DNA from: a virus
Strand: one strand, 5' to 3'
Length of the DNA stretch: 42,218 nt
Virus record (IMG/VR): IMGVR_UViG_3300045988_051752
The notes beneath the pieces were generated by a model. The model was not told the DNA's origin. It did not search any database and saw nothing but the letters and a program-made list of their open reading frames with translations. The translations under genes were made by a program, and so were the position numbers. Position 1 is the stretch's first letter; every line of letters starts with the position of its first letter. Below are positions 1 to 42,218 of this stretch, piece after piece.

Positions 1-75
1 AAGCAAGGCCGGTAGAATTGACAGCGGAAGATTTACAAGAACCGCAGATTGACGCACAGGCAAAAGAAAAAAAAG
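1..75. repeat. Terminal direct repeat, copy A (identical to 42144-42218)
   Basis: Base-by-base comparison: aagcaaggccggtagaattgacagcggaagatttacaagaaccgcagattgacgcacaggcaaaagaaaaaaaag occurs at both ends. Confidence 0.97.
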
Positions 76-3000
76 CGGTGCAGGAAAATGTACGCCAAAG
101 AGAAAAAGTACCGGAAACGGGCGCACAGCGAAGCGTAGAAGGGGTAAATTACAAAGGACTACAGGGAGATATCGAAGGAATAGACCGGGTAGAGAACGGA
201 AAGATTTATGCACGGGTAAACACAGGGGATGCAACAATCGTACAGCCGGTAAGCAACTTAAACTTCGACAATGCTGTCACGCAGGCGCTCTACCAGACAG
301 CAGAAGGATACAAAGATGCCGGAGCAAGAAATTTCGTGATGGAGTACAACGGAGAAAGCCTGATAGCGTACAAAAAAGGATTCAATGCGTATTACGATGC
401 AGCAACTGTAGGAATCCCGATGGGGAAAGTAAACAGCGTATACGGAAACATGCTTACAGAAAAACAAAAAGCAGCGGCGTATGCAGCTGGAGAAACAGAT
501 CTTAATTTCGAACAAAGGCATGAAAACTTAAAAGTGGCGCGTGAGACCAAAACAGCAGGATCGCAGGTGCTGGAAAACGACGCTTTCAGAAGCCTGACGA
601 AGGAAAACCAGACAATATTAAAGGCATATGCAAAGATGTCCGGGGCAAACGTGGTGGTAGACGAGACAATTTCAGCAGGAAACGGACGGTATGCGAACGG
701 CTACTACGACAATAACGGAACGATCCATATTGCAGCGGATGCCACAAGCCCGATAAGCGTAGTGGCAAACCACGAACTGACGCACTACCTGCAGCAATAT
801 TCACCGATTTATGATGAGTACAAGAATGAGGTCATCAACTATCTGATGCAAAAAGAAAACATGCCATTGGACGGTTTGATCGAAAGACATATGTCAAATT
901 ATGAGAATGCAGGCCGCCAGATTTCCAGAGAGGAAGCTATGGACGAAATCGTGGCAAATGCAAGCGAAATGTTCCTGACGGATGAATCAGCAGTACAGCG
1001 GATGGTAAAAGAAAACAGATCCATCGGAGAGAAAGTGCTGGACTTCTTTAAAGAATTTATTTCGAACTTGAAGAAAATGCTCGAAGGATACGAACCGAAG
1101 AGCAAAGAAGCACAGATGCTGAATGAAGACTTGGAAATGGCACGAAAAACAGAAAAGATCTGGCTGGAAGCCATGCAGGATGCGAAGCGAACGGGGGGAG
1201 GAGATGCGAGCATAGAAAATGTAAATGTAGCAGTAGCGAATGACGGAAGTGCATATAGAACATATTCCTTGAAGACATGGAACGAATCGGAGTACGCGAC
1301 GGAGAAGAAAAAGGCAGCAGAGGAGCTGGCAGAAGCGATCGGAGTAACGAAAAGAACAGCAACCGAATATATCAACAACATAAATAGCATCGCGGCAATC
1401 ATCGCGGAAGACAAGGAGAGGCTTGACTATAAGGCGTCGCCATACGGGAGCGCGTGGAAGTCGAACGCTGAATACGGAGGGTCGATAGACATGTCGACGC
1501 TGTGCCCGAAAAGAAGAATGTATACAGGGACGGTAGCAGAGATACAGAAGGCGATGCCGAACACGGCTCTGACAGCAGAAGACTATGTAAGCATAAGGTC
1601 AATGATGATGGAGAAAGGATACGAGGTGGCTTGCGGATTCTGCTATGTAGAATCATCAAGAAAAGACATAGGAAAATACACGGGGGAATTTCTGGAACAA
1701 TATAAAAAGGATCACCCAGAAAGCAATTACACACAAGTGGACTTCAACACACCAGAAGGCCTGGAAAAAGTACAGGAGTCAGACAAGGGGGCATACGACA
1801 AGTATCTGGAATTCATGAACAGGCTCGCGCAAAGAAAACCGAAATTATTTGAAAACAGGACAGAGTACAGACATGAGATACTGGATGCATTTAAGAGAAA
1901 GGAGACAATAGAAAAGAAAAACAAAAACGGGGGAGTTAGGTTACAAAGCTTCTCGGATTTTGAAACGCCACATTTGATAGATATGATGCAGGTGATCATC
2001 GACATGTCGAGGGTAGGGCTTGGAGGACAAGCATACACAAAAATGCCGAACTTCGCATGGGCGCTCGGAGATACCGGATTAAAGATAAACCTATCATTGG
2101 TAGGAAATGTGGATGAAAAAGGAAACCTAACGTTTGATGATGTGGAGGGCATGCCGATAGATGAGGCAATGAAACTGAGGAAACGGTATTCAAAAAACGT
2201 AGGAACGATCCTTGTGGGAGTGAGTGACGAACACATACTGGCAGCAATGAAAGATGATAGGATAGACTTCATCATACCGTTTCACAGAAGCCAATGGAAC
2301 AAAAGCCTATACTCTGCGCTGGGGATAGATGGGTACAAAGATTACACAAAGCTGCAGAATGAAAGCTACATCGAAGAAAGACGAAACAAAAACGGGAAAA
2401 AGATGCGTCCAAGCAATTTTATGCCAAACGAATACTGGGATTATTCAAAAACCGGGAAACAGAATGCGGAAAAATACTTAGAAATGTGTGCAGAGGATGG
2501 AAGAATTCCGAAATTCAGCAATTTTCTTAAATACAATGAAGACGGAACGTGGTCACTGAAAGAAGACGGAAGCACAGATGGATATTGGAAATTGCTGGGA
2601 GATTTCAAGATGTACGACAACGAAGGAAAGGGATCACCGCAGAAACCGGTAAAGCCGAAATTTAACATGGATGAATGCGAAAGGATACTGAACGAATACG
2701 AAGGAGGGCACCAAAGTTTCCCTGTGGCAAAAGATGTCGTAAGAGAATTTCTGGAAGAAAGAAAAGATAAGAAATTCATGATAAAAGAAGACATCAGATA
2801 TCAGATGGAGGATGCCTCCGAAGTAGACTACGATACGCTGAAAGCGGAAAACAAGGACCTGAAAGAATTAAACAGCATATTGGGAGGAATGATAAAGGCA
2901 ACAAAGGGAATAGAACCGGACCAGGATGCGATAAAGAAGGTCGGAAAGAAAATTCTGAAAGACTATAACTCGGATTATAATCTGGATACATTTACAAGAA

Positions 3001-6000
3001 ATATGACCGGTATATGGAAGTATATATCAGGATCCAAAAACATAGACGCAGAGCAGGTGGCAATAGCCACGGCGGACATGGCAAAGGGAATCCTGGAACA
3101 CGCAAAGGTAAATGTAAACGAGAGATACGCAGAGCAGTATAAAGATCTGGCAAAAGAGGTAAGACAGATCAAGCTGGAAGTGCCGGAAGAGATGAGGGGA
3201 GATTTCGACCGGGAAGGAGGATACGCGGAATTCCGAAAGAGAAATTTCGGAACGTTAAAGCTGGGAAAAGAAGGACAGAGCATTGATTCCTACTACCAGT
3301 CCCTGGCAGAAAGATACCCGGAGCTGTTTGACGAAACTATATACACCAACCCTGCGGATCGGCTCATGCACATAGCGGAAGTGATGGAAAGTATAAAGCC
3401 GAAGTATGAAAATGCATTTGGAATGGATCTTGATGAAGCAGCAGCGGATCTGGCGCATGAAATCTATCAGTCGTATTTTGATATTGCAGCAGGAAAAGGC
3501 TCTATTGATTCGATCAGAAAGAATGTGATAGAAAAAGAGCGGTTGAAATACAAGAAATACAGGGAGAAAATGCGGGATGATTACAAAAAGTACAGGGAAG
3601 AGTACAGAGGGAATTTTGCGCAGAGAAGAAAGGAGAACTTTGAAAAGAAAGCCTATTCGAAAAACATCGAACAGACAGCAAACAGATTAAGCAGATGGCT
3701 TTTGAATCCGACGAACACCAACAGCGTACCGGAGAGTTTAAGGGGGCCGGTGGCTGAATTCTTAAATTCCATCAATTTAAGCAGTAAGGACGTGAATGTG
3801 TACGGAAATCCCACGCAGAGAACGCTTAAATGGCAGGCTCTATCAAGGGCATATGAGAATATCATCAAAGCGCAGGACAAGTCGGAATACACGGGACAAT
3901 TCATAGACCTGGATCCGGATCTGGTAAACATGCTGAATGATCTGACGGAAAAGAATAAAGAGGTAATGCTTGCAGATATGACTGTGCAGGACATGAAGGA
4001 ATTGAACCGGCTGATAATGGCTGTGAAAAAATCCATCGAAAGCACGAACACATTACTTGCAACAGAGAACTACAAGAGAGTGTCAGATCTGGGAGAGAAG
4101 TTCCTGGAAGAAAACGAGAAAAAAGAAAGTGCAAAGGAAAGTGTATACGGAACCGTAAATACAGCAAGAAACTTCATGAAGCTGGATATGTTGGATTCAA
4201 GGACGTATTTCAATTCACTGGGAAAAGCAGGAATGGATATATACGGGGCATTGAGAAGCGGACTGGACAAAAAAACGAGAAATATCAAAATTGCGCACGA
4301 CTACATAAAAAATCTGATAGGAGAAACAGATATATCAGAGTGGTCGGGAGACAAGGCGAAGCTGCACGAATTCGAAACCGAGGGAAGGGAAGAGTTAAAA
4401 CTCACAACAGCACAAGTCATGAGCCTGTACAGATTGCTACAGAGAGACCAGGCAAAGAAACACATTCTGGAAGGAGGAATAAGGCCGGAAAAAACCATAA
4501 CAAAAGCAGGGAAGCTCAAAAAAGAAGTTACAAGATACTATGAACCGATACGGGTAACCGAAAAAGACCTGCTGAACATCATAGACACACTGACGCCGGA
4601 GCAGAAAAGGATTGCTGATGGAATCACGGATTTCTTCACTTCAACAACATCTGCCTGGGGAAACGAAGTGTCCATGCAGTTGTACGGATACAGGAAATTC
4701 ATGGCAAGAAACTACTTCCCGATCGTTTCGGATAACAGCTTTACGAATTCGGCAAGCGGAGACCAGCAGGGAAACGTACAGACCTTGAAAAACATGGGAA
4801 GTACAAAAGCGACCGTGCCGCATGCAGGAAACCCGATCATATTACAGGATATTTTTGATGTATATGCAAGGCAGTCCGACCAGATGGCAAGCTACAATGC
4901 ATTTGTGGTGCCGCTAACAGACCTGCAGAAGTGGTACAACTACAGAGGAGATCCTACGATAACGAAGTACAAAAAATCTGTAAAACAGACCATAACAAGG
5001 ACAATGGGGCAAAATGGAAGGGCATATCTGGACACCTTGGTGCGGAGAATAAACGGAGTAGCCGAGAAAGAAACGGCAAAACAGATATGGTCAAGCCTGA
5101 CATCGAACATGAAGTCTGCGGCAATCGGAGCGAACTTAAGAGTTGTACTGCAGCAGCCGACGGCGATTGTAAGAGCAGCAACCGTGATCGATGCAAAGTA
5201 CCTGATGAAAGGAATGGCAAAAAAAGCGGACGGAGACCAGATGAAGAAGTACGCACCGATAGCACAGTGGAAAGACTGGGGATATTTCGAAATGGACACC
5301 GGCCGGCAGATGAAGGATGTTATTCTTGGGAAGGAATCGTTGAAAGACAAAGCAATGGCACCGGCAGGAATGGCCGATGACTTCACATGGGGGAAAATCT
5401 GGAATGCGGTATTGTATGAAACGAAGGATAAAACGGACTTAAAACCGGGATCGGAAGAATTCTATCAGGCAGCAGGAAAGAGATTCTCTGAAATCATCGA
5501 CAGAACACAGGTTGTCGATTCCATCCTGCACAGGTCAAGTGTAATGATCCAGAAGGACAATGCGACAAAAATGGCAACATCCTTTATGTCGGAGCCTATA
5601 AAAACCTACAACATGGTCTACGACACGCTGATGAACACGCCGGGAGGAAAGAAGGAAGTCGCAAAGAGCATGGCAAAGCTGCTGGTGATCCTGACGGTAC
5701 AAAATGCAGTGAACGCACTGGCGCAGACACTGGCGGATGTATGGAGAGATGATGACGATGAAACAGCATGGGTGGATGTAGAAACATGGAAAGATAATTT
5801 CAAAGACAACATGAATCCACTTACATACATTCCGTACTTAAAGGAGATACCTTCGATATGGCAGGGATTTTCGGCAGAAAGGACGGAAATGACGGGTATC
5901 ACGGATTCGGTGCAGGGATTACAGAAATGGATCAAATACTTCCAGGGAGAATCAAAGTATACGGCAGCAGGGCTTGTGAGAGAATCCATGAAACCGATCA

Positions 6001-6938
6001 GTGAGTTGTCGGGAATGCCAATAAACTCCACGCTCAGAGAGTTTGAAAGCCTGGCGGATTTGATTGCATGGAACTATCGCAAGGTAACAGGAAACGAAAC
6101 TGCGAAAGCCGAGTATGAGATCAAAAAGACATTTTACAGAGCAGGAAGTCCGAAGAACAGAAATATGTTCATCGGACTTTACGGAAGAGCAAGGGAAGAG
6201 GGGGATTACAAAACAGCAGCAGCCATCTATAACGATCTGCAAAAAGCCGGGAACACCAAAGAAAGGCTTGACAATGCGTATAAGAAATGGAAGAAGAAAA
6301 GGGATGAGGGACTGCTGGAAGCAGATGAAGGCTTGCAGAAGGAAATAACAGAGGCATACAAAAACAACGACATGGAAACATTCAAATCCGCATCGGAAGA
6401 ATTGAAGAGCAAGGGTATAGACATTAACACCGCGCTGGATCAGATTGAAGACGAGGAAAAAGAGGAAGAGGAATACGAAGTGTCGGAAGTAACGCCGGAA
6501 GACCTGCAGAAGGAAGATAACACAGCAGAACTATACACCTTGCTTTACATGGCGACCCAAAACAATGATACACAGGCGCAGAACACATACAAAAAGCAGC
6601 TGAAAGAAGCTGGGGAAAAAGAGGAGGACTTCCAGAAAAACCTTTTAAAAGAGCAAAATGCCAAGGCTAAGGCAACAGGGGGAACGGAGTATAGCTACGA
6701 TGCACTGTTCAATGCTCTGGTATCCACAGAAGGGAAAAACGGCAAAAAGTATAAGGAAATAGAACAGGGGCTGAAAAAATACGGAAAAGACGATTCCACA
6801 ATAAAAAAATCCATGAAGTCCAGATTAAAAACAGCATATATGAACAGCAGAGGAAACGACAGGCTCACGAAAAAATATTCCGATTTGCTGAGAAGCTTCG
6901 GAGTGGACACACAAACGATTAAAGGATGGCTGGAATAA
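1..6938 (+). CDS. Giant multidomain protein, 3' part (stop TAA 6936-6938); combined ORF is 9,069 nt = 3,022 aa
   Basis: The frame is open from the first base. The track starts it at an internal TTG (18) only because the window begins there. It contains an HExxH motif (HELTH, 771-785), a Cys cluster (CPKRR...ACGFCYVE, from about 1503), and a long K/E-rich C-terminal tail. Coding-strand purine bias produces many spurious antisense ORFs. Confidence 0.85.
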   Translation, partial: ARPVELTAEDLQEPQIDAQAKEKKAVQENVRQREKVPETGAQRSVEGVNYKGLQGDIEGIDRVENGKIYARVNTGDATIVQPVSNLNFDNAVTQALYQTAEGYKDAGARNFVMEYNGESLIAYKKGFNAYYDAATVGIPMGKVNSVYGNMLTEKQKAAAYAAGETDLNFEQRHENLKVARETKTAGSQVLENDAFRSLTKENQTILKAYAKMSGANVVVDETISAGNGRYANGYYDNNGTIHIAADATSPISVVANHELTHYLQQYSPIYDEYKNEVINYLMQKENMPLDGLIERHMSNYENAGRQISREEAMDEIVANASEMFLTDESAVQRMVKENRSIGEKVLDFFKEFISNLKKMLEGYEPKSKEAQMLNEDLEMARKTEKIWLEAMQDAKRTGGGDASIENVNVAVANDGSAYRTYSLKTWNESEYATEKKKAAEELAEAIGVTKRTATEYINNINSIAAIIAEDKERLDYKASPYGSAWKSNAEYGGSIDMSTLCPKRRMYTGTVAEIQKAMPNTALTAEDYVSIRSMMMEKGYEVACGFCYVESSRKDIGKYTGEFLEQYKKDHPESNYTQVDFNTPEGLEKVQESDKGAYDKYLEFMNRLAQRKPKLFENRTEYRHEILDAFKRKETIEKKNKNGGVRLQSFSDFETPHLIDMMQVIIDMSRVGLGGQAYTKMPNFAWALGDTGLKINLSLVGNVDEKGNLTFDDVEGMPIDEAMKLRKRYSKNVGTILVGVSDEHILAAMKDDRIDFIIPFHRSQWNKSLYSALGIDGYKDYTKLQNESYIEERRNKNGKKMRPSNFMPNEYWDYSKTGKQNAEKYLEMCAEDGRIPKFSNFLKYNEDGTWSLKEDGSTDGYWKLLGDFKMYDNEGKGSPQKPVKPKFNMDECERILNEYEGGHQSFPVAKDVVREFLEERKDKKFMIKEDIRYQMEDASEVDYDTLKAENKDLKELNSILGGMIKATKGIEPDQDAIKKVGKKILKDYNSDYNLDTFTRNMTGIWKYISGSKNIDAEQVAIATADMAKGILEHAKVNVNERYAEQYKDLAKEVRQIKLEVPEEMRGDFDREGGYAEFRKRNFGTLKLGKEGQSIDSYYQSLAERYPELFDETIYTNPADRLMHIAEVMESIKPKYENAFGMDLDEAAADLAHEIYQSYFDIAAGKGSIDSIRKNVIEKERLKYKKYREKMRDDYKKYREEYRGNFAQRRKENFEKKAYSKNIEQTANRLSRWLLNPTNTNSVPESLRGPVAEFLNSINLSSKDVNVYGNPTQRTLKWQALSRAYENIIKAQDKSEYTGQFIDLDPDLVNMLNDLTEKNKEVMLADMTVQDMKELNRLIMAVKKSIESTNTLLATENYKRVSDLGEKFLEENEKKESAKESVYGTVNTARNFMKLDMLDSRTYFNSLGKAGMDIYGALRSGLDKKTRNIKIAHDYIKNLIGETDISEWSGDKAKLHEFETEGREELKLTTAQVMSLYRLLQRDQAKKHILEGGIRPEKTITKAGKLKKEVTRYYEPIRVTEKDLLNIIDTLTPEQKRIADGITDFFTSTTSAWGNEVSMQLYGYRKFMARNYFPIVSDNSFTNSASGDQQGNVQTLKNMGSTKATVPHAGNPIILQDIFDVYARQSDQMASYNAFVVPLTDLQKWYNYRGDPTITKYKKSVKQTITRTMGQNGRAYLDTLVRRINGVAEKETAKQIWSSLTSNMKSAAIGANLRVVLQQPTAIVRAATVIDAKYLMKGMAKKADGDQMKKYAPIAQWKDWGYFEMDTGRQMKDVILGKESLKDKAMAPAGMADDFTWGKIWNAVLYETKDKTDLKPGSEEFYQAAGKRFSEIIDRTQVVDSILHRSSVMIQKDNATKMATSFMSEPIKTYNMVYDTLMNTPGGKKEVAKSMAKLLVILTVQNAVNALAQTLADVWRDDDDETAWVDVETWKDNFKDNMNPLTYIPYLKEIPSIWQGFSAERTEMTGITDSVQGLQKWIKYFQGESKYTAAGLVRESMKPISELSGMPINSTLREFESLADLIAWNYRKVTGNETAKAEYEIKKTFYRAGSPKNRNMFIGLYGRAREEGDYKTAAAIYNDLQKAGNTKERLDNAYKKWKKKRDEGLLEADEGLQKEITEAYKNNDMETFKSASEELKSKGIDINTALDQIEDEEKEEEEYEVSEVTPEDLQKEDNTAELYTLLYMATQNNDTQAQNTYKKQLKEAGEKEEDFQKNLLKEQNAKAKATGGTEYSYDALFNALVSTEGKNGKKYKEIEQGLKKYGKDDSTIKKSMKSRLKTAYMNSRGNDRLTKKYSDLLRSFGVDTQTIKGWLE
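771..785 (+). other. HExxH (HELTH) zincin-type metallopeptidase motif inside the giant ORF
   Basis: Sequence context is IHIAADATSPISVVANHELTHYLQQYSP. This is the classic zinc-binding HExxH pattern preceded by a hydrophobic strand. Assignment to the polyvalent-protein metallopeptidase family is from memory, not a search. Confidence 0.5.
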
Positions 6939-6945
6939 AGAAAAT

Positions 6946-6968
6946 GGGCGGAGAAATCCGCTCATTTT
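6946..6968 (+). terminator. Weak intrinsic terminator after the giant ORF
   Basis: Stem gggcgga / tccgctc with one mismatch, GAAA loop, followed by attttcc. Confidence 0.35.
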
Positions 6969-7002
6969 CCACACCTAAGAGGGAGAAAAGAAAAAAAACA
7001 TC

Positions 7003-7011
7003 TGCTAGAAT
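7003..7011 (+). promoter_or_regulatory. Possible extended -10 element (TGcTAGAAT) ahead of the lysis cassette
   Basis: Fits the TGnTAnAAT pattern 33 nt upstream of the xhlA-like start. No convincing -35. Confidence 0.2.
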
Positions 7012-7043
7012 GATGAAAAGGGAACACAAAGGAGGACGCAGAT

Positions 7044-7340
7044 GTGACAAACGAAGAGATTGCTGTTTTTCTGACCAAACACAAGGAAGAGATTGGATCG
7101 CTAAAGCATCGAATGAATGAGCAAGAGGAGAACAGCAAGACGATCCAGAATCTGGCGTTATCCGTGCGAGACCTGGCAGTAAACATGAAGAACATGATGA
7201 CAGAGCAGCAAAGAGCCAATGACCGGCTGGAAGCGCTGGAAGCAAAAGACGGGGAAATGTGGCGAAAGGTAGTAGGATATGTCGTAACACTGCTGATCGG
7301 CGCAGTGTTTGGATATATCACAAAACAAATCGGAATGTAG
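7044..7340 (+). CDS. xhlA: XhlA-like lysis-associated membrane protein (coiled coil + C-terminal TM)
   Basis: GTG start 7 nt after AAAGGAGGA (7028-7036). 98 aa with a coiled-coil N-terminus, DRLEALEAKDGEMWRK, then TM VVGYVVTLLIGAVFGYI. It sits immediately upstream of the holin, as in PBSX xhlA-xhlB-xlyA. Confidence 0.6.
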   Translation: MTNEEIAVFLTKHKEEIGSLKHRMNEQEENSKTIQNLALSVRDLAVNMKNMMTEQQRANDRLEALEAKDGEMWRKVVGYVVTLLIGAVFGYITKQIGM

Positions 7341-7350
7341 GAGGTATAAG

Positions 7351-7587
7351 ATGTTTAAAAATTGCGTATTTAAAGTATCCGTAGATACGAAAAAATGGGT
7401 AAAAGCGGCAGCAGTAAGGGCTGTGAAGACCATGGCACAGACGGCAGTGGTTACAATCGGAGCAGCGTCTGTCATGGAGGATGTCAGCTGGGGGATGGCG
7501 GTAAGCGCGGCAGTGCTGACGGGAATTGTGTCGGTGCTGACAAGCATTGCGGGAATTCCGGAGGTGCCGGATGAAAACGAGCAGTAA
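7351..7587 (+). CDS. Holin (r1t / phiLC3-like)
   Basis: ATG at 7351 after GGAGG. 78 aa. N-terminal motif KAAAVRAVKTMAQTAVV, two hydrophobic segments, C-terminal SIAGIPEVPDE. Overlaps the endolysin start. Confidence 0.75.
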   Translation: MFKNCVFKVSVDTKKWVKAAAVRAVKTMAQTAVVTIGAASVMEDVSWGMAVSAAVLTGIVSVLTSIAGIPEVPDENEQ

Positions 7588-8188
7588 AGGAATCGCATTA
7601 ATCAAAAGCTTTGAAGGATGCAGGTTGCGGGCATACAGAGACAGCGTAGGGGTGCTCACGATCGGATATGGCCACACCGGAGACGTAAGAGAAGGACAGG
7701 TTATATCCCAAGGATTCGCAGAAGAACTGCTGAAAGCAGACCTGACAAGATTTGAAAGGAATGTAACAAGGTATACACCTTTTGAAATGAACCAGAATCA
7801 GTTCGATGCTCTTGTTTCGTTTGCTTTTAACTGCGGAGCTGGAAACCTGAAAAAGCTGGTATCAGGAAGAAATAAAGACCAGGTGGCAAGAAAGATCCTG
7901 GAATACAACAAGGCCGGAGGAAGGGTTTTGGCAGGTCTGACAAGGAGAAGACAGGCGGAAAGAGCATTATTCCTGTCCGGGGGAAACAGAACACTGAAAA
8001 ACGGAAGCAGAGGGGATGATGTCAAGGAACTCCAGAGGATACTGACGAAGGAGGGCTTCCCGTGCGGAGCGGCAGACGGAATCTTCGGGAAAGCAACGAA
8101 GAAAGCGGTGATCGAATACCAGAACAGAGAAGGACTTGTAGCGGACGGGATCGTCGGAGAAAAGACGTGGAAAGCATTAGGAAAATAA
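7571..8188 (+). CDS. Endolysin: GH24 lysozyme domain + C-terminal PG_binding_1 domain
   Basis: GIALIKSFEGCRLRAYRDSVGVLTIGYGHT is the T4/lambda-type lysozyme signature with catalytic Glu. The C-terminus DVKELQRILTKEGFPCGAADGIFGKATKKAVIEYQ...GIVGEKTW is a peptidoglycan-binding repeat. Confidence 0.92.
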   Translation: MKTSSKGIALIKSFEGCRLRAYRDSVGVLTIGYGHTGDVREGQVISQGFAEELLKADLTRFERNVTRYTPFEMNQNQFDALVSFAFNCGAGNLKKLVSGRNKDQVARKILEYNKAGGRVLAGLTRRRQAERALFLSGGNRTLKNGSRGDDVKELQRILTKEGFPCGAADGIFGKATKKAVIEYQNREGLVADGIVGEKTWKALGK

Positions 8189-8200
8189 AGGAGATAAGCG

Positions 8201-8494
8201 GTGAAAGCATTTGTAAATGAAATTTACATGCATCCGCTACCGGAAAACTTTAAAAACCATATGAGGAATGACCTGGGATTTGGAGAGGATCACAAAAAGA
8301 TCATCGACAGCATGTCAAAGCACTACGGGGACAGCACATTTCATTACCAGGACACTATGATACCCAAGAGGAGATATGAATACCTCTTGGGTATTGTTGT
8401 ATCAAGACATATGGAAGAACTTCTCCGGCTGGCGGTGATAGGTTACAAATACGAACAGAACACGGACAAAAGCACAATCCAAAATAAAGTATGA
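8201..8494 (+). CDS. Hypothetical protein (97 aa)
   Basis: GTG start 7 nt after AAAGGAG. No motif recognised. Confidence 0.6.
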   Translation: MKAFVNEIYMHPLPENFKNHMRNDLGFGEDHKKIIDSMSKHYGDSTFHYQDTMIPKRRYEYLLGIVVSRHMEELLRLAVIGYKYEQNTDKSTIQNKV

Positions 8495-8518
8495 TAGAAA
8501 TATGAAAGGAGGGTGCTT

Positions 8519-9016
8519 ATGGGATACGAATATGCATCGAACGCAAAAGCAAACGGTGCCCTGGCAACGGGTATCGTCGGGGCAACTCTCAGCGGTCTTC
8601 TGACACTGGGAGCAGGAGGAAGACTTATGAACGGCGGCATGATGGATGGCACATGCAATCAGCCGATCACAAAGTTTGAGATGGAGCAGCAGAGCGTGAT
8701 TGCAGCAAAGGATGCGGAGATCGCACTACTGAAATCCGAACAGAACACAGAAACAAAGATCGCTGACGTATACGAGCGTCTTATCACTCGCATCAATCAG
8801 GATCAGAGAGAGCAGCAGGCGTGGAACGCAAACCAGGCCGTGGCAAACGCACAGATGTCCTCTGCAATCGCCGTGAACAACAACAGCATTGCGGCCATCC
8901 AGAACATTCTCAACAACCTGACGAAGGTTGTGATCCCTGCGACAAGCGTATGCCCGGAGCCTATGTCCCGGTATAATTCCTGGACGGCGCCGACATCGCC
9001 CACCACAACCGGCTAA
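8519..9016 (+). CDS. Hypothetical membrane-anchored coiled-coil protein (165 aa)
   Basis: ATG at 8519 after AAAGGAGGG. N-terminal TM GALATGIVGATLSGLLTLGAGG followed by a Q/N/A-rich coiled coil. Confidence 0.7.
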   Translation: MGYEYASNAKANGALATGIVGATLSGLLTLGAGGRLMNGGMMDGTCNQPITKFEMEQQSVIAAKDAEIALLKSEQNTETKIADVYERLITRINQDQREQQAWNANQAVANAQMSSAIAVNNNSIAAIQNILNNLTKVVIPATSVCPEPMSRYNSWTAPTSPTTTG

Positions 9017-9058
9017 TGAATGCGGGGCAATAGCCCCGCTGACCGGAGAAAGGAAAAT

Positions 9059-9409
9059 ATGTACTCCGAAGAACAGATTGTAGACGGATTGGTCAGATAC
9101 GCAGACCAGGAAATCTTAACAAAAATGCCACTGAAAGAACAGATCATTGCATCAACCGCACTGTTTGTGGCAGTAAAAAATAAGCAATACGTATTCCGGA
9201 ACCTGAGGGACAATGCATATGTAAAAATGCTTGGTGCGGTAAACGACAACAAAGAAGTGGACGCAGAGGCAGTTCTGGACGGACTGAAAGCATCACTTGA
9301 AAAGTACGGGAATCTGAAAGTAGACCTACCGTTTAAAGGATCAGGGAGCTTTACATTTACACCGGAAGATGCAGACCTGATGAAAAAATATATCAAAGGA
9401 GAACTGTGA
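9059..9409 (+). CDS. Hypothetical protein (116 aa)
   Basis: ATG at 9059 after GGAGAAAGG. The track start at 9020 lies inside a GC hairpin (9022-9039) and lacks an RBS. Confidence 0.65.
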   Translation: MYSEEQIVDGLVRYADQEILTKMPLKEQIIASTALFVAVKNKQYVFRNLRDNAYVKMLGAVNDNKEVDAEAVLDGLKASLEKYGNLKVDLPFKGSGSFTFTPEDADLMKKYIKGEL

Positions 9410-9663
9410 TGGAAGATTATAAGATTAAAGTATTAGAAAGCCTGGAAGACGAAATGGACGATGTGGACAAGTACATCCGGATGTCAAAAGTGGAAAGGGC
9501 AGAAGGAAGACATGAGTGCGCTGCCATGTTAAGAGAAACAGCCAGGGAAGAGCTGAAACATGCGAAGAGGCTCTGGCGGATTTACGAAAATCATGGATGG
9601 GAAGTACCGGAAGACGTAAAGAGAAGATATGCCGAAACGGAGCAGATGGTGCACGAGATGTAA
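9409..9663 (+). CDS. Hypothetical helical protein (84 aa)
   Basis: ATG at 9409, 7 nt after AGGAG, overlapping the upstream stop (GTGATG). Last plus-strand gene before the terminator and att region. Confidence 0.65.
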   Translation: MEDYKIKVLESLEDEMDDVDKYIRMSKVERAEGRHECAAMLRETAREELKHAKRLWRIYENHGWEVPEDVKRRYAETEQMVHEM

Positions 9664-9664
9664 G

Positions 9665-9690
9665 AAGGAGGCGGGAAACCGCCTCCTTTG
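9665..9690. terminator. Intrinsic terminator (10-bp stem, GAAA tetraloop, T-tail)
   Basis: aaggaggcgg-gaaa-ccgcctcctt followed by tg. Lies between the convergent lysis/cargo operon and the integrase gene. Confidence 0.8.
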
Positions 9691-9692
9691 CT

Positions 9693-9757
9693 GTGTATAT
9701 TATAGTAATCATCGTTGTACTGGTTCGTCGGTACAACGATGATAGAATTATATACAC
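9693..9757. other. Candidate attP: 65-bp imperfect palindrome abutting the integrase 3' end
   Basis: Outer arms gtgtatat (9693-9700) / atatacac (9750-9757). Inner arms atcatcgttgtac (9708-9720) / gtacaacgatgat (9731-9743). 10-bp centre tggttcgtcg. Overlaps the integrase stop codon (9748-9750). Confidence 0.4.
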
Positions 9758-11307: not shown

Positions 11308-11325
11308 ATTTAATTCCCCCTAAGT

Positions 11326-11901: not shown

Positions 11902-11992
11902 AGAATCGCCCCTTTGCCAAGACAAAATTTTGAGTAAATTGAAGGACAAAATAATCAAAAAATTTTGGTGATAAAAAATAAAGAGTAACTAA

Positions 11993-12031
11993 TTACAAAA
12001 TCAACAACTTTGTGCATAATTGGATGCACAA
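11993..12031 (+). promoter_or_regulatory. Promoter TTACAA-N17-(TGc)ATAATT overlapped by a perfect 8-bp inverted repeat (operator candidate)
   Basis: -35 at 11993-11998, -10 at 12016-12021 with TG at 12013-12014. Inverted repeat ttgtgcat (12010-12017) / atgcacaa (12024-12031) with a 6-bp spacer, just before RBS GGGAG. Confidence 0.5.
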
Positions 12032-12045
12032 GGGAGTGATTTATA

Positions 12046-36301: not shown

Positions 36302-37891
36302 ATGGAGACACTGCCAAGCCTTACGGCATCTTCAAGGACGGTGCAGTCAGTATCTGATTTCAGGGGATACAACCACAACCTGGTAATTGACGATAACCAA
36401 TTTTACGACATGAGAAACCTGTCGCTGGATGAATACCCGGTACTGACGCAGCGCCAGCCACGCGGAACAATAAAAAAACTGAATAAACCAAATGGATTGT
36501 TCGCGAAAAACAAGATCGTATATGTAGATGGGACAAATTTTTATTACGGAGATGAACTGATAGCGCAGGTGACGGACAGCAAAAAGCAGTTTGCATCTAT
36601 GGGAGCCTATATCCTGGTATGGCCGGATAAGATCATGTACAACACGTTCGATGGCACAATCACAAAACTGGAGAACAAAACGGAATTTACAGGGACGGTA
36701 AAGATCGAAAAGGCCAATATCTCAGATTCCCAGCAGACAACAACGGACTACACATCGTATGTAAGGATCACTGCAACGGGAATAGGAAAAGGGTTCAAGC
36801 AGTACGACGGTGTATCCATATCCGGAATCTCACAGGAAGATCTGAATGCAACGAAAGTGCTCTGGGAAGTGGCAGATGATTCTGTGCTGGTGGTTGGATC
36901 CGTAGAAAAGACGATAGTAGAACAGATGACGATCACCCTAGAAAGAAAAGTGCCGGACATGGAATTTTTCACGGAATCAGAAAACCGGTTATGGGGATGC
37001 TCTTCGAAGAATCATGAATTATACGCATGCAAAATCGGGGACCCGACAAACTGGAACGCTTTTGAAAACCTGTCAACGGATTCCTATGCGGTAACGATTG
37101 GCTCAGACGGGGACTTCACGGGAGCGGCAACGTACATGGGATACGTCCTGTTCTTCAAGGAGGACACAATCCACACGGTCATGGGAAACAAACCGGCCAA
37201 CTATCAGGTGCAGGGATCCAAGGGAAGAGGAATAGAGAAAGGATCGGAGCTTTCACCGGTGATTGTAAACGAGACGCTATATTACAAGGCAAGAACCGGA
37301 ATCGTAGCGTACCAGGGAACGTCAGCAACATCCATAGCTTCAGACATGGGAACGGTACAATACAAAGATGCTGTGGCAGGGTATCTGGGAAACAAATATT
37401 ACTGCTCCATGAAACAGGGAGAAAAATATTATCTGTTCTGCTACGATGAAAGTAAGGGGATGTGGACAAAGGAAGATGAGACGCAGGCGCTCTTCATGGC
37501 AACACTGGGAAACAACCTGTACTACATAGATGCAGAAGGGTATTTAAAAACCATCACAGGAGAGGATAACGAGAACATCCAGTGGGAAGCAATCTCGGGA
37601 GAGATCATGATGGCATACAACAGAAAATACCTGTGCAAGATCAATATCCGGGCTACGCTGGAAGAAAGAGCCACACTGGAGGCCTGGGTGCAGTACGACA
37701 ATGAAAAAATCTGGATCAGGGTGGCAACGATCACAGCCAAAAAGCACAGGGCCTATGATATTCCGGTCATGCCGCACCGGTGCGATCGGTTAAGGGTAAA
37801 ATTATCCGGGCGCGGGAAAAGTTGGATATATGGAATAGACAAGCAATTTGAGATGGGAAGTGATGTATGTGTCAACATGGGGCGGCATTGA
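36302..37891 (+). CDS. Large structural protein, 529 aa (tail hub/nozzle candidate)
   Basis: RBS AAGGAGG. Beta-rich repetitive pattern. The call rests on position only. Confidence 0.6.
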   Translation: METLPSLTASSRTVQSVSDFRGYNHNLVIDDNQFYDMRNLSLDEYPVLTQRQPRGTIKKLNKPNGLFAKNKIVYVDGTNFYYGDELIAQVTDSKKQFASMGAYILVWPDKIMYNTFDGTITKLENKTEFTGTVKIEKANISDSQQTTTDYTSYVRITATGIGKGFKQYDGVSISGISQEDLNATKVLWEVADDSVLVVGSVEKTIVEQMTITLERKVPDMEFFTESENRLWGCSSKNHELYACKIGDPTNWNAFENLSTDSYAVTIGSDGDFTGAATYMGYVLFFKEDTIHTVMGNKPANYQVQGSKGRGIEKGSELSPVIVNETLYYKARTGIVAYQGTSATSIASDMGTVQYKDAVAGYLGNKYYCSMKQGEKYYLFCYDESKGMWTKEDETQALFMATLGNNLYYIDAEGYLKTITGEDNENIQWEAISGEIMMAYNRKYLCKINIRATLEERATLEAWVQYDNEKIWIRVATITAKKHRAYDIPVMPHRCDRLRVKLSGRGKSWIYGIDKQFEMGSDVCVNMGRH

Positions 37892-38783
37892 CATACCGAA
37901 TATAAAATCAGATGACCTGCTGAACGAAAAAAAGATAAGCATGATAATGCAGCAGCTACAGCTGATTGACAGAAACATAAGGTTTGCAATGTACAATCTG
38001 GATCCGGAAGAGAATTTTGACAAAGCAGCGCTTGCCTCATACAACGGGCTGAAATCAGAAGTAAAGAAGCTGGGAAAGGATGGGACGGAATACAGAACAC
38101 TCATCGAGCAGACGGAAGAAAAGATAAGGCTGGAAGCGGAGCGGGCATCGGCAGCAGAAGGGAAACTAAGTGCAGCCCTGGAAGTGACCGCAGAGGGGAT
38201 AGCATCCAAGGTGTCAAAGGACGGGATCATATCAGCAATAAACCAGTCGGCAGAACAGGTATTAATACAGGCGCAGAAAATAAATCTGGACGGAGAACTG
38301 ACAGCGGGAGAAAACTTCCGTCTGAACATCAACACAAACACAAAACTATATGACGTCCTGGGGCTGAATTACAAAGATGGAGTGCACACGTTAATGACAG
38401 GCATTAAGCCGGGAGACGTTGCGGTACATTTCGACGACATTGCAGCAAGCATGAGCACGGACGGGTTTGCCTTTTCGAAGGACGATGGGACAATAGATGC
38501 ATTGTACGGGAAAAACGCATACACGAAAGGATACGGAGATTTCAGAGGGGGAATATTTGTAGGTTCCGGGTCGGGACTGGCAACAAGGTACGGGGACAAG
38601 ATGATAATTCAGGATTATGCAAATGGGAATGTAGCAGTCAATGCGGCGGGAGATACACTGCACATAGGAATGAGCAATACAAACGAGGTATCAATAGAAA
38701 AGCCAACGACAGTATTCGGAGACCTGACCGTATACGGAGTTATAAGATACAGGGATTCTGAAATAATAGAGCAGGAGGGATAA
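37863..38783 (+). CDS. Fibre-like minor structural protein, 306 aa
   Basis: Coiled-coil region followed by DGIISAINQSAEQVLIQAQKINLDGE, which is typical of phage minor structural/fibre proteins. ATG at 37863 (alternative TTG at 37848). Confidence 0.6.
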   Translation: MYVSTWGGIDIPNIKSDDLLNEKKISMIMQQLQLIDRNIRFAMYNLDPEENFDKAALASYNGLKSEVKKLGKDGTEYRTLIEQTEEKIRLEAERASAAEGKLSAALEVTAEGIASKVSKDGIISAINQSAEQVLIQAQKINLDGELTAGENFRLNINTNTKLYDVLGLNYKDGVHTLMTGIKPGDVAVHFDDIAASMSTDGFAFSKDDGTIDALYGKNAYTKGYGDFRGGIFVGSGSGLATRYGDKMIIQDYANGNVAVNAAGDTLHIGMSNTNEVSIEKPTTVFGDLTVYGVIRYRDSEIIEQEG

Positions 38784-38784
38784 C

Positions 38785-40002
38785 GTGGCGACATATCAGA
38801 TCAAGAAAGGAGATACACTTTCAGGAATTGCGAAGCAGTACGGCGTATCGGTGGGAGATATTGCCTCTGCCAACGGAATCAGCAACCCGAACAAAATAAG
38901 CGCAGGGGCAACACTGACGATCCCTGGGGGTGGCGGGGCAGCGAGCACATCATCAAGCAGTGCATCATATTCTTCTTCATCATCAGGCGGGAGGCCGGCA
39001 TACGCGCCGTCAGACCGAACAAATGAAGCTTATGAGAAATATCAGACAGCACAGAACAACAAGCCGAATGCATACCAGGAATCCCAGACACTGGGAGACT
39101 TAAGGAAGCAGTTAGAAGATTTTGAAACAAAGAAACCGGGAGATTATCAGAGTGCATACAAAACGCAGATAGATGATATTCTGGGTCAGATCTTAGGCAA
39201 AGGGGACTTTAACTGGGATCCGAACAAAGACCAACTCTACCAGTCCATGGCAGACCAATACAGGGTAAAAGGAAACAAAGCCATGAGGGATACCATGGGA
39301 AGTGCAGCAGCCATGACGGGAGGGTATGGATCTTCCTACGCGACAACAGCGGGGCAGCAGGCGTATGACGACTACATGCAGCAGTGGGCAGATCGGGCAA
39401 CGGACTACTACAACATGGCCTTACAGCAGTACAACAGCGAAATGAACAATCTAAACAACAAAATGTCAGCACTTCGGACGGCGGATGACACGGACTACGG
39501 AAGATACCGCGACACGGTAAATGACTGGTACACAGACAGAAATTACCTAACAGACAAGGTAAATACCCAGTACGACAACGAATACGGGCAGTACCGGGAT
39601 ACGGTAAGCGATTATTACAATGACCTGGAAGCGGCAAGAGCGCTGTATCAGCAGCTGTACGGGGAGGATTGGGACAAGTACCAGTCAGATCTCAGCCAGT
39701 ACAACACAGACAGAAACTATGATTTTGAAGTAGCACAGGCAGACAGAGAATATCAGCTAGCCCTGAAAAAGCTTGCGGCATCAGGAAGCGGATCATCTAA
39801 AAGCACACCCAAAAAAGGAGAGAAGATTACATACAATGAAGCAATAATGGGGGCAAGCAGAAAAGGGACAAGCAAATCGGCGCAGCTAAACTATGCAAAT
39901 AAATTGCTGGATAATGGAAATGTGTCGGATTCTGATTATACAAAACTTCTAAACCAAATCATAGGAGGATATGCACCGGGATATACAAAGACAAAGAAAT
40001 AA
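38785..40002 (+). CDS. LysM-domain protein with a Ser-rich linker and a Y/D/N/Q-rich repeat domain, 405 aa
   Basis: GTG after GGAGGGA. LysM segment YQIKKGDTLSGIAKQYGVSVGDIASANGISNPNKISAGATLTIPG. Repeated YG.YRDTV.D.Y motif. Confidence 0.8.
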   Translation: MATYQIKKGDTLSGIAKQYGVSVGDIASANGISNPNKISAGATLTIPGGGGAASTSSSSASYSSSSSGGRPAYAPSDRTNEAYEKYQTAQNNKPNAYQESQTLGDLRKQLEDFETKKPGDYQSAYKTQIDDILGQILGKGDFNWDPNKDQLYQSMADQYRVKGNKAMRDTMGSAAAMTGGYGSSYATTAGQQAYDDYMQQWADRATDYYNMALQQYNSEMNNLNNKMSALRTADDTDYGRYRDTVNDWYTDRNYLTDKVNTQYDNEYGQYRDTVSDYYNDLEAARALYQQLYGEDWDKYQSDLSQYNTDRNYDFEVAQADREYQLALKKLAASGSGSSKSTPKKGEKITYNEAIMGASRKGTSKSAQLNYANKLLDNGNVSDSDYTKLLNQIIGGYAPGYTKTKK

Positions 40003-40012: not shown

Positions 40013-42218
40013 ATGGCATCACAGGCACAGATTAAAGCAAGAGAAAATATTATGAATATTAGAAGAAAACGGGAAGAAGAGGAGAACTCTTCCCGTTTTT
40101 CGTATTCAGAGAATGAAGACCCGATGACAGTGGCAAGAAGAAACATATCCACGATCAGAGGAAAGCAGCTGACGGATAACACAAGCAGATTAGACAGCCT
40201 GAGAAAGTCAGCAGAGGAAAGAAGAATAAGGCAGGAAGCGCTGAATAAATACAAGAGGATCGTAGGAACGGATAATGCGGAAGAAGTAAAGAGAATAAGC
40301 AGTGTAGGACAGGCGTTGGACGAAAGAATACAAAGGTCAATGGGCGTCAAGGGAGACAGGATCGGCTCAGAGAGACTGGAAAGAGCTGTAGCTTTGGATC
40401 GAATGAAAAAAAGCACAGCAGAAAAGAATGCACTTGAAAAAGACACGCAGTATTACAAAAGGCTTCTGACAGATGATTCCCAGATGGATGCAAGCACCAG
40501 AAGACAGGCGCTTGAAAAATTAAAAAGGACCATCATGACAGAACAGATCACCGGGGATTCAAAGACGCTTTCCGACCTTTCCAAAAGCTTCTCAAACGCA
40601 ACCGGAAAGAAGGTATCACAGACAGATGCCTATCAGATGCTGGAAAATGCCCAGGGACAAATCGACCGCGACAAATACGACCAGAAGATGGGAGAAAAGC
40701 GGAAAGAGCTGGAAAAGGTTCTGGATGAAAAGGGATTTGAAACAGCGGCAAAAAAAGGAAGCCAGATTGCACAAAAAAAGACAGTATACAATGCTGATAT
40801 GCTGGCAGGATACCAGAACGAGGACAAATCATACCCTGATATTTTCAAGAACCAGACAGAGTACGAACAGTACCAGGACATGGCAGATACAGAGAAGGAT
40901 GTATTTGATTACTATCTGGCCACAGAAGGAGTACAGAAAGCAAAAGAATACTTAAATACCATAAAGAGGGATATCACAAAGAGACAGAACGAAGCTTACA
41001 CAGAAAAAATGAAGCAGTATGCAACGGAACACCCTGTATTATCATCGGATTCCTCGGTGGCAGCAGGATTTGCAACAGGCCTCGGAGCTTTGGAGACTAT
41101 ACGCCAGAATGCAGAGAACGTCCTGACGGGAAACAATGTGCCGGTAGACATCAATTCAAAACTGTTCAGACCGATAAATGCCCAGAATACAATCAGAAAC
41201 ACTGTGATGGAAAACTTCCGGGGAAGCGAAGATGTAAAAGCACTAAAGAGATTCCTGTATCAGACCGGAATGTCTATGGCAGATTTTGGAACACAGGCGG
41301 CAGCAGGAGCATTAGTGGGAGGATTTGCAGGAGAAGCCGCATCTTTTGCCGGAGCATCTGCAGAGAGGGCGGCACAGATCACAGCAACGATATCGAAGAA
41401 CGCATCACTTCCGATCATGGGAGCAGGAGCAATGTCCCAGACAGTGAAAGAAGTAATCGAGAATGGAGGAACCAACGATCAGGCTATGCAGCTGGGACTG
41501 ATTGCGGGAGCGGCGGAAATGGTAACGGAGAGGCTGGGAATCGACAATCTTTCTAAGTTATCAAGCCAGGGTGTAAATTCTGTAAAGAGGGCAGTACACA
41601 AGATCATCGCAGAAGGTGCGATCCCGGAAGGTCTGGAAGAAGTTGTTTCGGACATCGTAAACAACGTTGCCAACGACGCGATCATGCAGGAAAACTCCGA
41701 TTTTAATCAGGCTGTTGAGCGGTACATGACACCGAATGCAATGACGGGGGAACACATTTCAAGAAGACAGGCAGAAGATCTGGCAATGAAAGACAGAATC
41801 AAGAATATGGCACTTTCATTTGCAGGAGGGGCACTGTCCGGCGGAATCATGGCAGCAGGAGCCTACGGAAGCGGATATGTCGAGGGAGGAAAAACAGGAA
41901 GAGCGCTGAATGAGTACTACGGAATCAGCGACGAAACATTGATAAATGACGCAAAGGCACTGGAAGGAACAAATGCAAAGGAATTAGCAGAATACTACGA
42001 GGGAAAAGGAAAGCTCACAGACAGAAAAAAAGCAGAATTATACAATCAGATTTTAAAGGACACAAAAGGAGAATACACACCATCACCGGAAATCACACAG
42101 AACAAGACGGAAGATACACAGACCGGGGAGGGAATCGCACAGGAAGCAAGGCCGGTAGAATTGACAGCGGAAGATTTACAAGAACCGCAGATTGACGCAC
42201 AGGCAAAAGAAAAAAAAG
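40013..42218 (+). CDS. Giant multidomain (polyvalent-type) virion/ejection protein, 5' part; the ORF leaves the window and continues at 1..6938
   Basis: RBS AAGGAGGAG at 40001-40009, ATG at 40013. My manual translation finds no stop in this frame up to 42218. Its phase matches ORF 18..6938 once the 75-bp overlap is collapsed (42146 corresponds to position 3). It is missing from the ORF track because it has no in-window stop. The N-terminal region is Ala/Gly-rich and hydrophobic (GAGAMSQ..., MALSFAGGALSGGIMAAGAYG). Confidence 0.85.
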   Translation, partial: MASQAQIKARENIMNIRRKREEEENSSRFSYSENEDPMTVARRNISTIRGKQLTDNTSRLDSLRKSAEERRIRQEALNKYKRIVGTDNAEEVKRISSVGQALDERIQRSMGVKGDRIGSERLERAVALDRMKKSTAEKNALEKDTQYYKRLLTDDSQMDASTRRQALEKLKRTIMTEQITGDSKTLSDLSKSFSNATGKKVSQTDAYQMLENAQGQIDRDKYDQKMGEKRKELEKVLDEKGFETAAKKGSQIAQKKTVYNADMLAGYQNEDKSYPDIFKNQTEYEQYQDMADTEKDVFDYYLATEGVQKAKEYLNTIKRDITKRQNEAYTEKMKQYATEHPVLSSDSSVAAGFATGLGALETIRQNAENVLTGNNVPVDINSKLFRPINAQNTIRNTVMENFRGSEDVKALKRFLYQTGMSMADFGTQAAAGALVGGFAGEAASFAGASAERAAQITATISKNASLPIMGAGAMSQTVKEVIENGGTNDQAMQLGLIAGAAEMVTERLGIDNLSKLSSQGVNSVKRAVHKIIAEGAIPEGLEEVVSDIVNNVANDAIMQENSDFNQAVERYMTPNAMTGEHISRRQAEDLAMKDRIKNMALSFAGGALSGGIMAAGAYGSGYVEGGKTGRALNEYYGISDETLINDAKALEGTNAKELAEYYEGKGKLTDRKKAELYNQILKDTKGEYTPSPEITQNKTEDTQTGEGIAQEARPVELTAEDLQEPQIDAQAKEKK
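42144..42218. repeat. Terminal direct repeat, copy B (identical to 1-75)
   Basis: Same 75-mer as bases 1-75. It lies inside an open reading frame, which fits an assembly overlap of a circular molecule better than a physical terminus. Confidence 0.97.

Follow-up and report, generated by a model that had tools for sequence, protein, structure and literature searches.

Extent of the giant gene and layout of its product

The stretch of viral DNA analyzed here, IMG/VR record IMGVR_UViG_3300045988_051752 at its full length of 42,218 nucleotides (nt) and referred to below as the window, carries one giant gene whose product we consider a candidate phage polyvalent protein. The last 75 nt of the window (42144-42218) are exactly identical to its first 75 nt (1-75). 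The contig is thus circular, and the terminal duplicate is an assembly overlap of the circularised contig rather than a biological repeat, such that the true length is 42,143 bp. The point of linearisation cuts the giant open reading frame (ORF); the real gene runs on the + strand from 40013 across the junction to 6938 and encodes 3,022 amino acids (aa). A preliminary description of this DNA had placed the gene at 18-6938, an ORF that alone translates to 2,306 aa. This start was mistaken, as nt 18 is an internal TTG (Leu717) and the gene continues upstream over the circular junction to an ATG at 40013, which, once the ORF is extended across the junction, is seen to be preceded by a AAGGAGGAG ribosome-binding site. 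Over the full length, beginning at residue 1, four database homologues of 3,024-3,029 aa (P0001-P0004) are 98% identical to the product, which confirms the 3,022-aa gene model. In a sister contig of 42,420 bp (L001), encoding a giant protein of 3,225 aa (P0008), the gene is internal and contiguous.

A homologue search of 5.8 billion proteins yielded 464 homologues, and the coverage figures given below come from the 120 listed. These are mostly 2,400-3,900 aa long, and most of the complete-looking contigs are about 40-44 kb. Domains were delimited by homologue coverage, by a cassette boundary visible at the DNA level and by AlphaFold2 (AF2) models, with the following layout:

40013..42143 (+), 5' portion of the gene: covers residues 1-710 plus the first base of codon 711
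Within 40013..42143 (+), residues 1-280: N-terminal K/E/R-rich region, recognized by composition
Within 40013..42143 (+), residues ~280-700: conserved, including a stretch rich in Gly and Ala (G+A 35% at 401-500)
1..266 (+), residues 711-799: linker ahead of the metallopeptidase
267..1178 (+), residues ~800-1103: predicted zincin-like metallopeptidase (MPTase) domain, covered by up to 117 of the 120 homologues
1179..2783 (+), residues 1104-1638: exchangeable cassette, here the Cys module, present in ~74 of 120
2784..6269 (+), residues ~1639-2800: mostly alpha-helical C-terminal core, holding YGYRKFMARNYFPIVSD and ADDFTWGKIWN, covered by up to 105 of 120
6270..6938 (+), residues 2801-3022: K/E-rich C-terminal tail (K+E 28-32%) and stop, covered by 22-38 of 120

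All of the motif strings quoted in the preliminary description (GGVRLQSFSDFE, GGQAYTKMPNF, IDFIIPFHRSQWN, YGYRKFMARNYFPIVSD and ADDFTWGKIWN) are present in the translation of 18..6938. The K/E-rich tail is present as well but is shorter than the ~400 aa claimed, its strongly K/E-rich part covering about 220-240 aa (residues ~2800-3022), and it is poorly conserved beyond close relatives. When the whole giant protein was compared with Pfam and NCBIfam, no match rose above threshold, only sub-threshold helix-turn-helix (HTH) matches being returned. PHROG 22978, a family of unknown function, is the sole PHROG match and extends along the protein's length, including the part encoded at the 5' end.

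Cassette exchange among close relatives

In a blastn comparison with the sister contig, the window is 94.6% identical from 35721 across the junction to 1178 and 96.3% identical over 2784-13015. Window positions 1179-2783 (1,605 nt) are replaced in frame in the sister contig by 2,193 unrelated nt that carry PBECR5. Given a PBECR5 cassette in this position between flanks of such identity, the Cys module is an exchangeable in-frame cassette. Behind residues 1-1109, in proteins whose N-terminal halves are at least 85% identical, the slot holds at least four cassette types, namely the Cys module, PBECR5-type cassettes of 486-725 aa, a 218-aa PBECR3 cassette and a 207-aa cassette of unassigned family. 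Judged from these alignments, the pattern is one of recombinational module shuffling, as known for polymorphic toxins.

In the relatives, inserted domains occupy one of two places, immediately behind the peptidase or in the interval that separates the Cys module from the core, and the scaffold thus offers two variable slots. The second corresponds approximately to the first ~250 aa of the core region, where relatives insert MuF_C, ART-PolyVal or Zeta-toxin domains; the gap between Cys module and core has a median of 369 aa (10-90% range, 38-794 aa). The following domains were located in relatives:

P0005, residues 1131-1351: PBECR5
P0010, residues 1167-1287: PBECR3
P0024, residues 1541-1630 and 1717-1825: MuF_C and ART-PolyVal (ADP-ribosyltransferase)
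P0093, residues 1925-2069: Zeta_toxin
P0097: LPD38

Relatives sharing the scaffold carry PF18814, PF18812, PF18760, PF18819, PF18798, PF18857 and PF06414, with PF18798 taken from precomputed annotation; PBECR5, PBECR3, ART-PolyVal, MuF_C and LPD38 are Pfam families with confirmed names. Along with PF18798, these were established from polyvalent proteins. The resemblance to polyvalent proteins put forward in the preliminary description is thus borne out by the presence of PBECR5, PBECR3, ART-PolyVal, MuF_C, LPD38, PF18798 and Zeta toxin on the same scaffold and by the exchangeability of the Cys slot.

Mosaicism is not confined to the cassettes. In P0025, P0031-P0037 and P0044, residues 1-1109 are 86-91% identical to those of the window protein while the C-terminal core is just 27-31% identical, so that the scaffold itself is mosaic. 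As a side observation, P0097 shares the peptidase and the Cys module, and its LPD38-containing C-terminal part matches the ~40-kb Bacillus megaterium phages Page, Pony and Pascal. The same LPD38 region matches a 'DarB-like antirestriction' gene of Vibrio phage VvAW1, linking the module to Dar-type proteins. A comparison of profiles with P0097 by hhalign, aimed at a link between core and LPD38, found again only the shared peptidase and Cys module.

The predicted HExxH metallopeptidase domain

The HExxH motif lies at nt 771-785, where the preliminary description had placed it, and reads HELTH. In an alignment of 24 homologues of 20-51% identity, its residues H968, E969 and H972, together with E1026 (nt 945-947), are the sole invariant columns. 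The H, E and H are conserved in all 101 aligned homologues, whereas ~0.015 occurrences of HExxH would be expected by chance from the protein's composition. A conventional tape-measure or tail-lysin protein was said to be indicated should HExxH fall in a non-conserved position; the motif instead occupies the only invariant positions of the domain.

HExxH followed by a downstream Glu corresponds to a gluzincin signature, in which E1026 is the predicted third zinc ligand. In the MPTases of polyvalent proteins, HExxH likewise lies on one helix and a Glu on the next (Iyer et al. 2017, PMC5512222). Pfam matches of the domain are weak: DUF6782, a 'putative metallopeptidase', was matched in 8 of the 24 homologues (best E 2e-5), eCIS_core in three, and Zn_peptidase_2 and YgjP-like in single members. 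A profile search of the PDB with the peptidase domain gave no match. Considering the motif and its conservation, residues ~800-1103 very likely form a zincin-like metallopeptidase.

The Cys module

All five Cys residues of the 3,022-aa protein fall inside 392 aa, for which random placement gives p≈0.0014. Four of them are invariant: C1212 (nt 1503-1505), C1255 (1632-1634), C1258 (1641-1643) and C1540 (2487-2489), corresponding to C103, C146, C149 and C431 in module numbering. The preliminary description had noted a CPKRR block ~250 aa downstream of HExxH, and indeed C1212 is 244 aa beyond H968 and 42 residues ahead of CGFC (C1255/C1258); C1540 is an addition to the cluster as then described. 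In 220 copies of the domain, the four Cys are at least 99% conserved and 70 module residues are at least 97% conserved, including the four Cys and many Lys, Arg, Asp, Ser and Thr. The near-invariant residues are largely polar or basic.

In a search of 1.84 billion representatives at E<=1e-3, the module family accounts for 2,582 clusters (50% identity), the best 150 of which lie almost all within proteins of 1,500-7,763 aa. Scans with exact patterns alone found the module in at least 72 IMG/VR viral contigs, nearly all of 46 kb or less. It follows directly behind the peptidase, starting within 80 aa of it in 136 of 183 proteins, with a median gap of 17 aa. It should also be noted that in one 44,368-bp contig a 755-aa gene call (P0123) begins exactly at the Cys-module 'MSTLC' and ends with MuF_C, which suggests a giant gene split or truncated in some phages by a frameshift, a stop codon or an alternative genetic code.

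Modelling of individual blocks by AlphaFold and Foldseek, as the preliminary description had suggested, gave a confident fold for the Cys module and a less confident one for the core, neither with a significant PDB neighbour. The AF2 model of residues 1110-1640, built from a 21-sequence alignment, has a predicted local distance difference test score (pLDDT) of 88 and a predicted template modelling score (pTM) of 0.87. Its N-terminal part is helical, with sub-threshold HTH matches at module residues 33-70. In the middle, a short beta element is followed by C103 and then by a helical insertion carrying C146-x2-C149. The C-terminal part consists of five successive beta-alpha units, at whose strand ends the invariant motifs GGxRxQSxSDFE, YTK, KINLS and PxHxS are found.

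Searches of the PDB by sequence, with a single sequence and with a profile, gave no significant match to the module. Foldseek with the model against the PDB gave a best E of 0.6, mostly to generic TIM-like barrels, and against BFVD one uncharacterised phage homologue, followed by a 'putative Fe-S oxidoreductase' at E 0.27. No recurrent enzymatic family appeared when all 21 module homologues were scanned with Pfam at E<=10. The expectation that some domains may be new is thus supported for this module, which has no Pfam model or PDB match. We describe it as an apparently undescribed enzyme-like domain with a putative Cys4 metal or iron-sulphur (Fe-S) site. With low confidence, our best guess is a nucleic-acid or nucleotide target, because of the HTH matches, the basic invariant residues and the RNase domains that share its slot.

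Several known folds were considered. That the module might be an Fe-S enzyme built around a partial TIM barrel, radical-SAM-like or not, is suggested by its beta-alpha repeat with the first Cys right behind a beta-strand, by the invariance of the Cys residues and by the Foldseek neighbours of highest probability, which, although not significant, are radical-SAM/Fe-S proteins (PFL-activating enzyme 3cb8, probability 0.35, E 0.63; the 'putative Fe-S oxidoreductase', probability 0.33, E 0.27). However, the spacing is C-x42-C-x2-C with the fourth invariant Cys 282 residues further on, and not the CxxxCxxC of radical SAM; none of the 21 members matches the Radical_SAM or Fer4 families even at E<=10; and hhalign of the module profile against E. 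coli PflA (approximate sequence) gave a probability of 0.2%. Four Cys ligands would be equally compatible with structural Zn or with a 4Fe-4S site not of the SAM type. Membership in the radical-SAM family was rejected on the Cys spacing, Pfam, the PflA comparison and the Foldseek E of 0.63, and we regard the broader explanation, an Fe-S enzyme with such a barrel, as quite improbable.

A KDO8P-synthase/PEP-barrel relationship, raised by the K-x-N-x-S motif and weak matches, was likewise discarded, as hhalign against E. coli KdsA (approximate sequence) gave less than 0.5%. A reading of 'GSIDMS' and 'SDFE' as GH25-lysozyme-like was dropped, with no GH25 structure among the Foldseek matches. A remote match in the Pelagibacteraceae contig L012 belongs to an HTH-nucleotidyltransferase gene and was judged spurious.

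The helical core

The AF2 model of residues 1641-2800 is almost all alpha-helical, with a pLDDT of 74 and a pTM of 0.62. Foldseek against the PDB returned generic helical proteins at E>=0.1, with no RNA polymerase among the matches, and phmmer with the single core sequence found nothing in the PDB. The alignment of the core contains few invariant residues. We infer that the core serves the family as its structural scaffold; it may bring about encapsidation or be a component of the ejection apparatus.

Genomic context

The other genes of the window that bear on these results are:

24864-25640 (+): TerS
25582-27012 (+): TerL
27000-28853 (+): P22-type portal
30180-31202 (+): major capsid protein
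31544-32845 (+): collagen-repeat fibre-like protein (Pfam Collagen, E 1.5e-10; its many tail-fibre PHROG matches are confined to the repeat)
36302-37891 (+): 529-aa protein matching PHROG 511, 'internal virion protein'
Between 37891 and the LysM gene, inside 36302..40002 (+): 311-aa gp58-like/minor head protein
38785-40002 (+): 405-aa LysM protein, directly upstream of the giant gene
7044-7340 and 7309-7587: two small ORFs between the giant gene and the endolysin
7547..8188 (+): endolysin, Phage_lysozyme and PG_binding_1
9748-11307 (-): large serine recombinase with Resolvase and Recombinase domains
16201-16908: rolling-circle-type Rep protein (Pfam REP_ORF2-G2P, E 2e-15), kept in the sister contig
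19726-20586 (+): N6/N4 DNA methyltransferase

From its gene content, the 42,143-bp genome is that of a predicted temperate, podovirus-like phage, the temperate lifestyle being concluded from the large serine recombinase; a repressor-like HTH region is present alongside this integrase. The giant gene is co-oriented with the structural operon and is its final gene, ahead of the lysis genes, a position kept in the sister contig. The giant gene is followed by the two small ORFs and the endolysin, and in the sister contig the two genes in this interval include an r1t-type holin; the giant gene thus closes the structural module. The late genes directly upstream (36302..40002) provide a context suggestive of a virion or ejection role. 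Among the genes of the window, scans of Pfam, PHROG and NCBIfam matched no tail-tube, sheath, chaperone, baseplate or tape-measure family. Metagenome-assembled contigs with relatives are mostly assigned to Clostridia, e.g., Eubacteriales, Faecousia, Acutalibacteraceae and Ruminiclostridium. A tblastn search of 50,697 phage records at E<=1e-5, the sole search of a phage collection, found two unannotated fragments only and no match in Stx phage records.

Further features of the genome were observed. Nearly all genes of the window are co-oriented, and the + strand shows a strong purine excess (AT skew 0.2-0.4, GC skew 0.13-0.25) that falls to ~0 at 10-14 kb, where minus-strand genes lie. The rolling-circle-type Rep gene sits in a tailed-phage genome. 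Two stretches outside the giant gene have no nucleotide match in the sister contig. The first, 34536-35720, has flanks that are 91-95% identical and lies in ORF 34312-35925, whose 537-aa product has no Pfam or PHROG match and in whose place the sister contig has a 493-aa gene; the stretch probably encodes a receptor-binding portion of a tail protein that has been exchanged. The other, 13016-13361, lies in a minus-strand SH3_3-domain gene (12782-13498) of the lysogeny/early region and is, after the cassette, the third such stretch.

Interpretation and alternative explanations

We consider it probable that the product of the giant gene belongs to the phage polyvalent proteins as understood by Iyer, Aravind et al. 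(2017). Its conserved scaffold offers two or more slots in which enzymatic modules can be interchanged, and the protein would be packaged in the capsid and co-ejected. The scaffold would comprise the N-terminal region, the zincin-type metallopeptidase and the ~1,150-aa alpha-helical core. Polyvalent proteins combine at least two unrelated domains, of an enzymatic, DNA-binding or structural kind, in one polypeptide, and here MPTase, an HTH-like and Cys4 beta-alpha module and a helical core are joined. They form a network of shared domains in variable architectures, as is seen in the Pfam families of the relatives and the four or more cassette types in one slot. They also belong to portal-terminase phages, among late or virion genes; the window holds TerS, TerL, portal and capsid genes, and the giant gene is last in the structural operon.

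Phages carry 35% of the polyvalent proteins surveyed by Iyer et al., and these are described as 'likely to be packaged in the capsid'. The hub domain met most often is the MPTase, for which processing of the polyprotein or an action on host proteins is proposed (PMC5512222). The protein resembles those of that survey (Iyer, Burroughs, Anand, de Souza, Aravind 2017, J Bacteriol; PMC5512222) in being a giant multi-domain polypeptide of a portal/terminase phage with a zincin MPTase hub, and in having relatives of variable architecture with PBECR, ART-PolyVal, LPD and MuF_C. It differs in passing no Pfam model of that set and in its Cys4 domain and 1,150-aa core, both of which lack a Pfam model; the words 'cysteine', 'Fe-S', 'TIM barrel' and 'radical SAM' do not occur in the text of PMC5512222.

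Three phage systems offer analogies for delivery. The gp47 protein of the Stx phage phi24B is also giant, encoded among the structural genes of a temperate podovirus and endowed with polyvalent-protein domains. Mass spectrometry detected gp47 in virions, and it is proposed to be a capsid-packaged, ejected protein; its length is put at 2,811 aa in one place and at >3,000 aa in another (bioRxiv 10.64898/2026.04.10.717836). Unlike the window protein, gp47 has LPD5, LPD1 and LPD38, and its host is E. coli rather than Clostridia. The virion RNA polymerase (vRNAP) gp50 of phage N4 (~3,500 aa) is a further giant podoviral protein with a zincin MPTase; it travels in the N4 capsid and is ejected together with the DNA, as the window protein would be, but it carries a T7-like RNA polymerase, none of which was detected in the window protein, and N4 is lytic. 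The Dar proteins of P1 (DarB, DdrB) are large, packaged and injected against restriction, the packaging again being presumptive here, and DdrB has a C-terminal MPTase (PMC5512222). They differ in their methylase/helicase and ParB-like domains, and the sole link to them is indirect, through the LPD38 region of P0097 and the 'DarB-like' gene of VvAW1.

The MuF polymorphic toxins of temperate phages, reportedly described by Jamet and co-workers in 2017, are said to be phage-packaged scaffolds with interchangeable toxin modules that recombine between close phages. The window protein resembles them in bearing interchangeable modules on a scaffold diversified by recombination between closely related phages. 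In those toxins, however, the MuF/SPP1 gp7 domain, which targets the protein to the procapsid, is at the N-terminus and the toxin at the C-terminus, while the modules exchanged here are internal; the Pfam scan found no Phage_Mu_F domain in the window protein, and MuF_C occurs in some relatives only.

Based on the position of the gene and on the analogy with phi24B gp47 proteomics, N4 vRNAP and P1 Dar, packaging in the capsid and delivery with the DNA are probable. An anti-defence role, as the preliminary description put forward for such proteins, would likewise draw on gene position and analogy. As neither phi24B gp47 nor N4 vRNAP is a detectable sequence homologue of the window protein, the delivery step is an analogy rather than a demonstration. 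In the scheme that we propose, the protein would be made late and enclosed in the capsid of a temperate, short-tailed phage infecting gut Clostridia, and would be expelled via portal and tail along with the genome. With lower confidence, the metallopeptidase may cut the polyprotein in the head or in the cell, thereby freeing the modules. With low confidence, the Cys4 module would then become active inside the host, with a nucleic acid or nucleotide as the most likely substrate, since its slot-mates (PBECR RNases) and the domains of the nearby slot (ADP-ribosyltransferase, Zeta-toxin kinase) are effectors of that kind. That the module represents a new metal- or Fe-S-dependent enzyme family, spread over thousands of phage giant proteins, injected with the genome and modifying or cleaving a nucleic-acid or nucleotide target of host or phage, is a tentative proposal of which we are more doubtful than convinced.

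Some points that weigh against the polyvalent-protein assignment should be considered. The window protein's own sequence reaches no Pfam threshold for any domain, and the peptidase assignment draws on a motif and on sub-threshold Pfam matches in relatives. The Cys module and the core are without a significant structural neighbour (best Foldseek E of 0.6 and 0.1, respectively), such that the roles given to them are guesses. The canonical packaging domain MuF (SPP1 gp7) was not detected in the protein, and the 50,697 phage records appear to include no cultured phage with a close homologue. Packaging, ejection, processing and enzymatic activity are what we infer.

An explanation that we consider unlikely is that the protein is mainly a structural ejection ('pilot' or conduit) protein, whose core and Gly/Ala-rich N-terminal part form a trans-envelope DNA channel, with the metallopeptidase digesting the cell wall and the cassette as secondary cargo. 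Exactly such a role is proposed for gp47 by the phi24B authors (bioRxiv 10.64898/2026.04.10.717836), the large, helical core is conserved more widely than any other part, and the gene adjoins the region of the 'internal virion protein' PHROG match and the LysM gene. A channel fits less well with the single strongly hydrophobic segment of the protein (2604-2622), with the lack of similarity to solved ejection proteins in the PDB fold library and with slots that hold RNase, ART and kinase toxin domains, the targets of which are cytoplasmic. A conduit role would, moreover, be compatible with a polyvalent protein rather than exclude it.

A non-virion role, as a cytoplasmic toxin or defence protein expressed late or from the prophage (e.g., in superinfection exclusion or kin competition), appears very improbable. 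Host-retained polyvalent proteins, possibly defensive, were noted by Iyer et al. (PMC5512222), and the toxin-type cassettes resemble polymorphic toxins, yet in a complete phage genome the gene ends the structural operon and shares its orientation, and this position is kept in the sister contig.

We find a tape measure or tail lysin of a long-tailed phage scarcely credible, and the preliminary description, which had argued against one, is supported in this. The gene is the largest of the late region and parts of its product are K/E-rich and helical, but the virion genes are podovirus-like with a P22-type portal, tail-tube, sheath, assembly-chaperone and baseplate matches are missing, no tape-measure or lysin family was matched in Pfam, PHROG or NCBIfam, and conserved globular enzyme-like domains are present. 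Tape measures span ~1.5 Å of tail per residue, and 3,022 aa would imply a tail of ~450 nm, which also counts against this role.

An N4-like vRNAP or other injected polymerase has next to no likelihood: size (~3,000 aa), podoviral genome and MPTase domain, which always accompanies N4-like vRNAPs (PMC5512222), would fit, whereas the models of 1110-1640 and 1641-2800 give no RNA polymerase match in the PDB, no polymerase Pfam family is matched, the core alignment has few invariant residues and the phage, which carries an integrase and a repressor-like HTH region, is temperate.

Significance

Of all phage weapons, polyvalent proteins are believed to reach the host cytoplasm first, but few have been studied experimentally. 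Read as such, the window protein would add to a known class a member marked by a natural cassette swap and by a widespread, unannotated Cys4 enzyme-like domain. Phages that are 95-96% identical over the compared region differ by the in-frame swap of one internal module, which amounts to a natural experiment. Such a swap (Cys4 as opposed to PBECR RNases or others) allows the function of a module, as well as its effects on host range and defence evasion, to be compared on a similar background. As a widespread and extremely conserved domain with no Pfam model or structural relative, the Cys4 module is a target for enzyme discovery in phages of gut Clostridia. If its proposed role is true, the module would be a new class of phage-delivered effector, beside the interchangeable RNase, ART and kinase modules.

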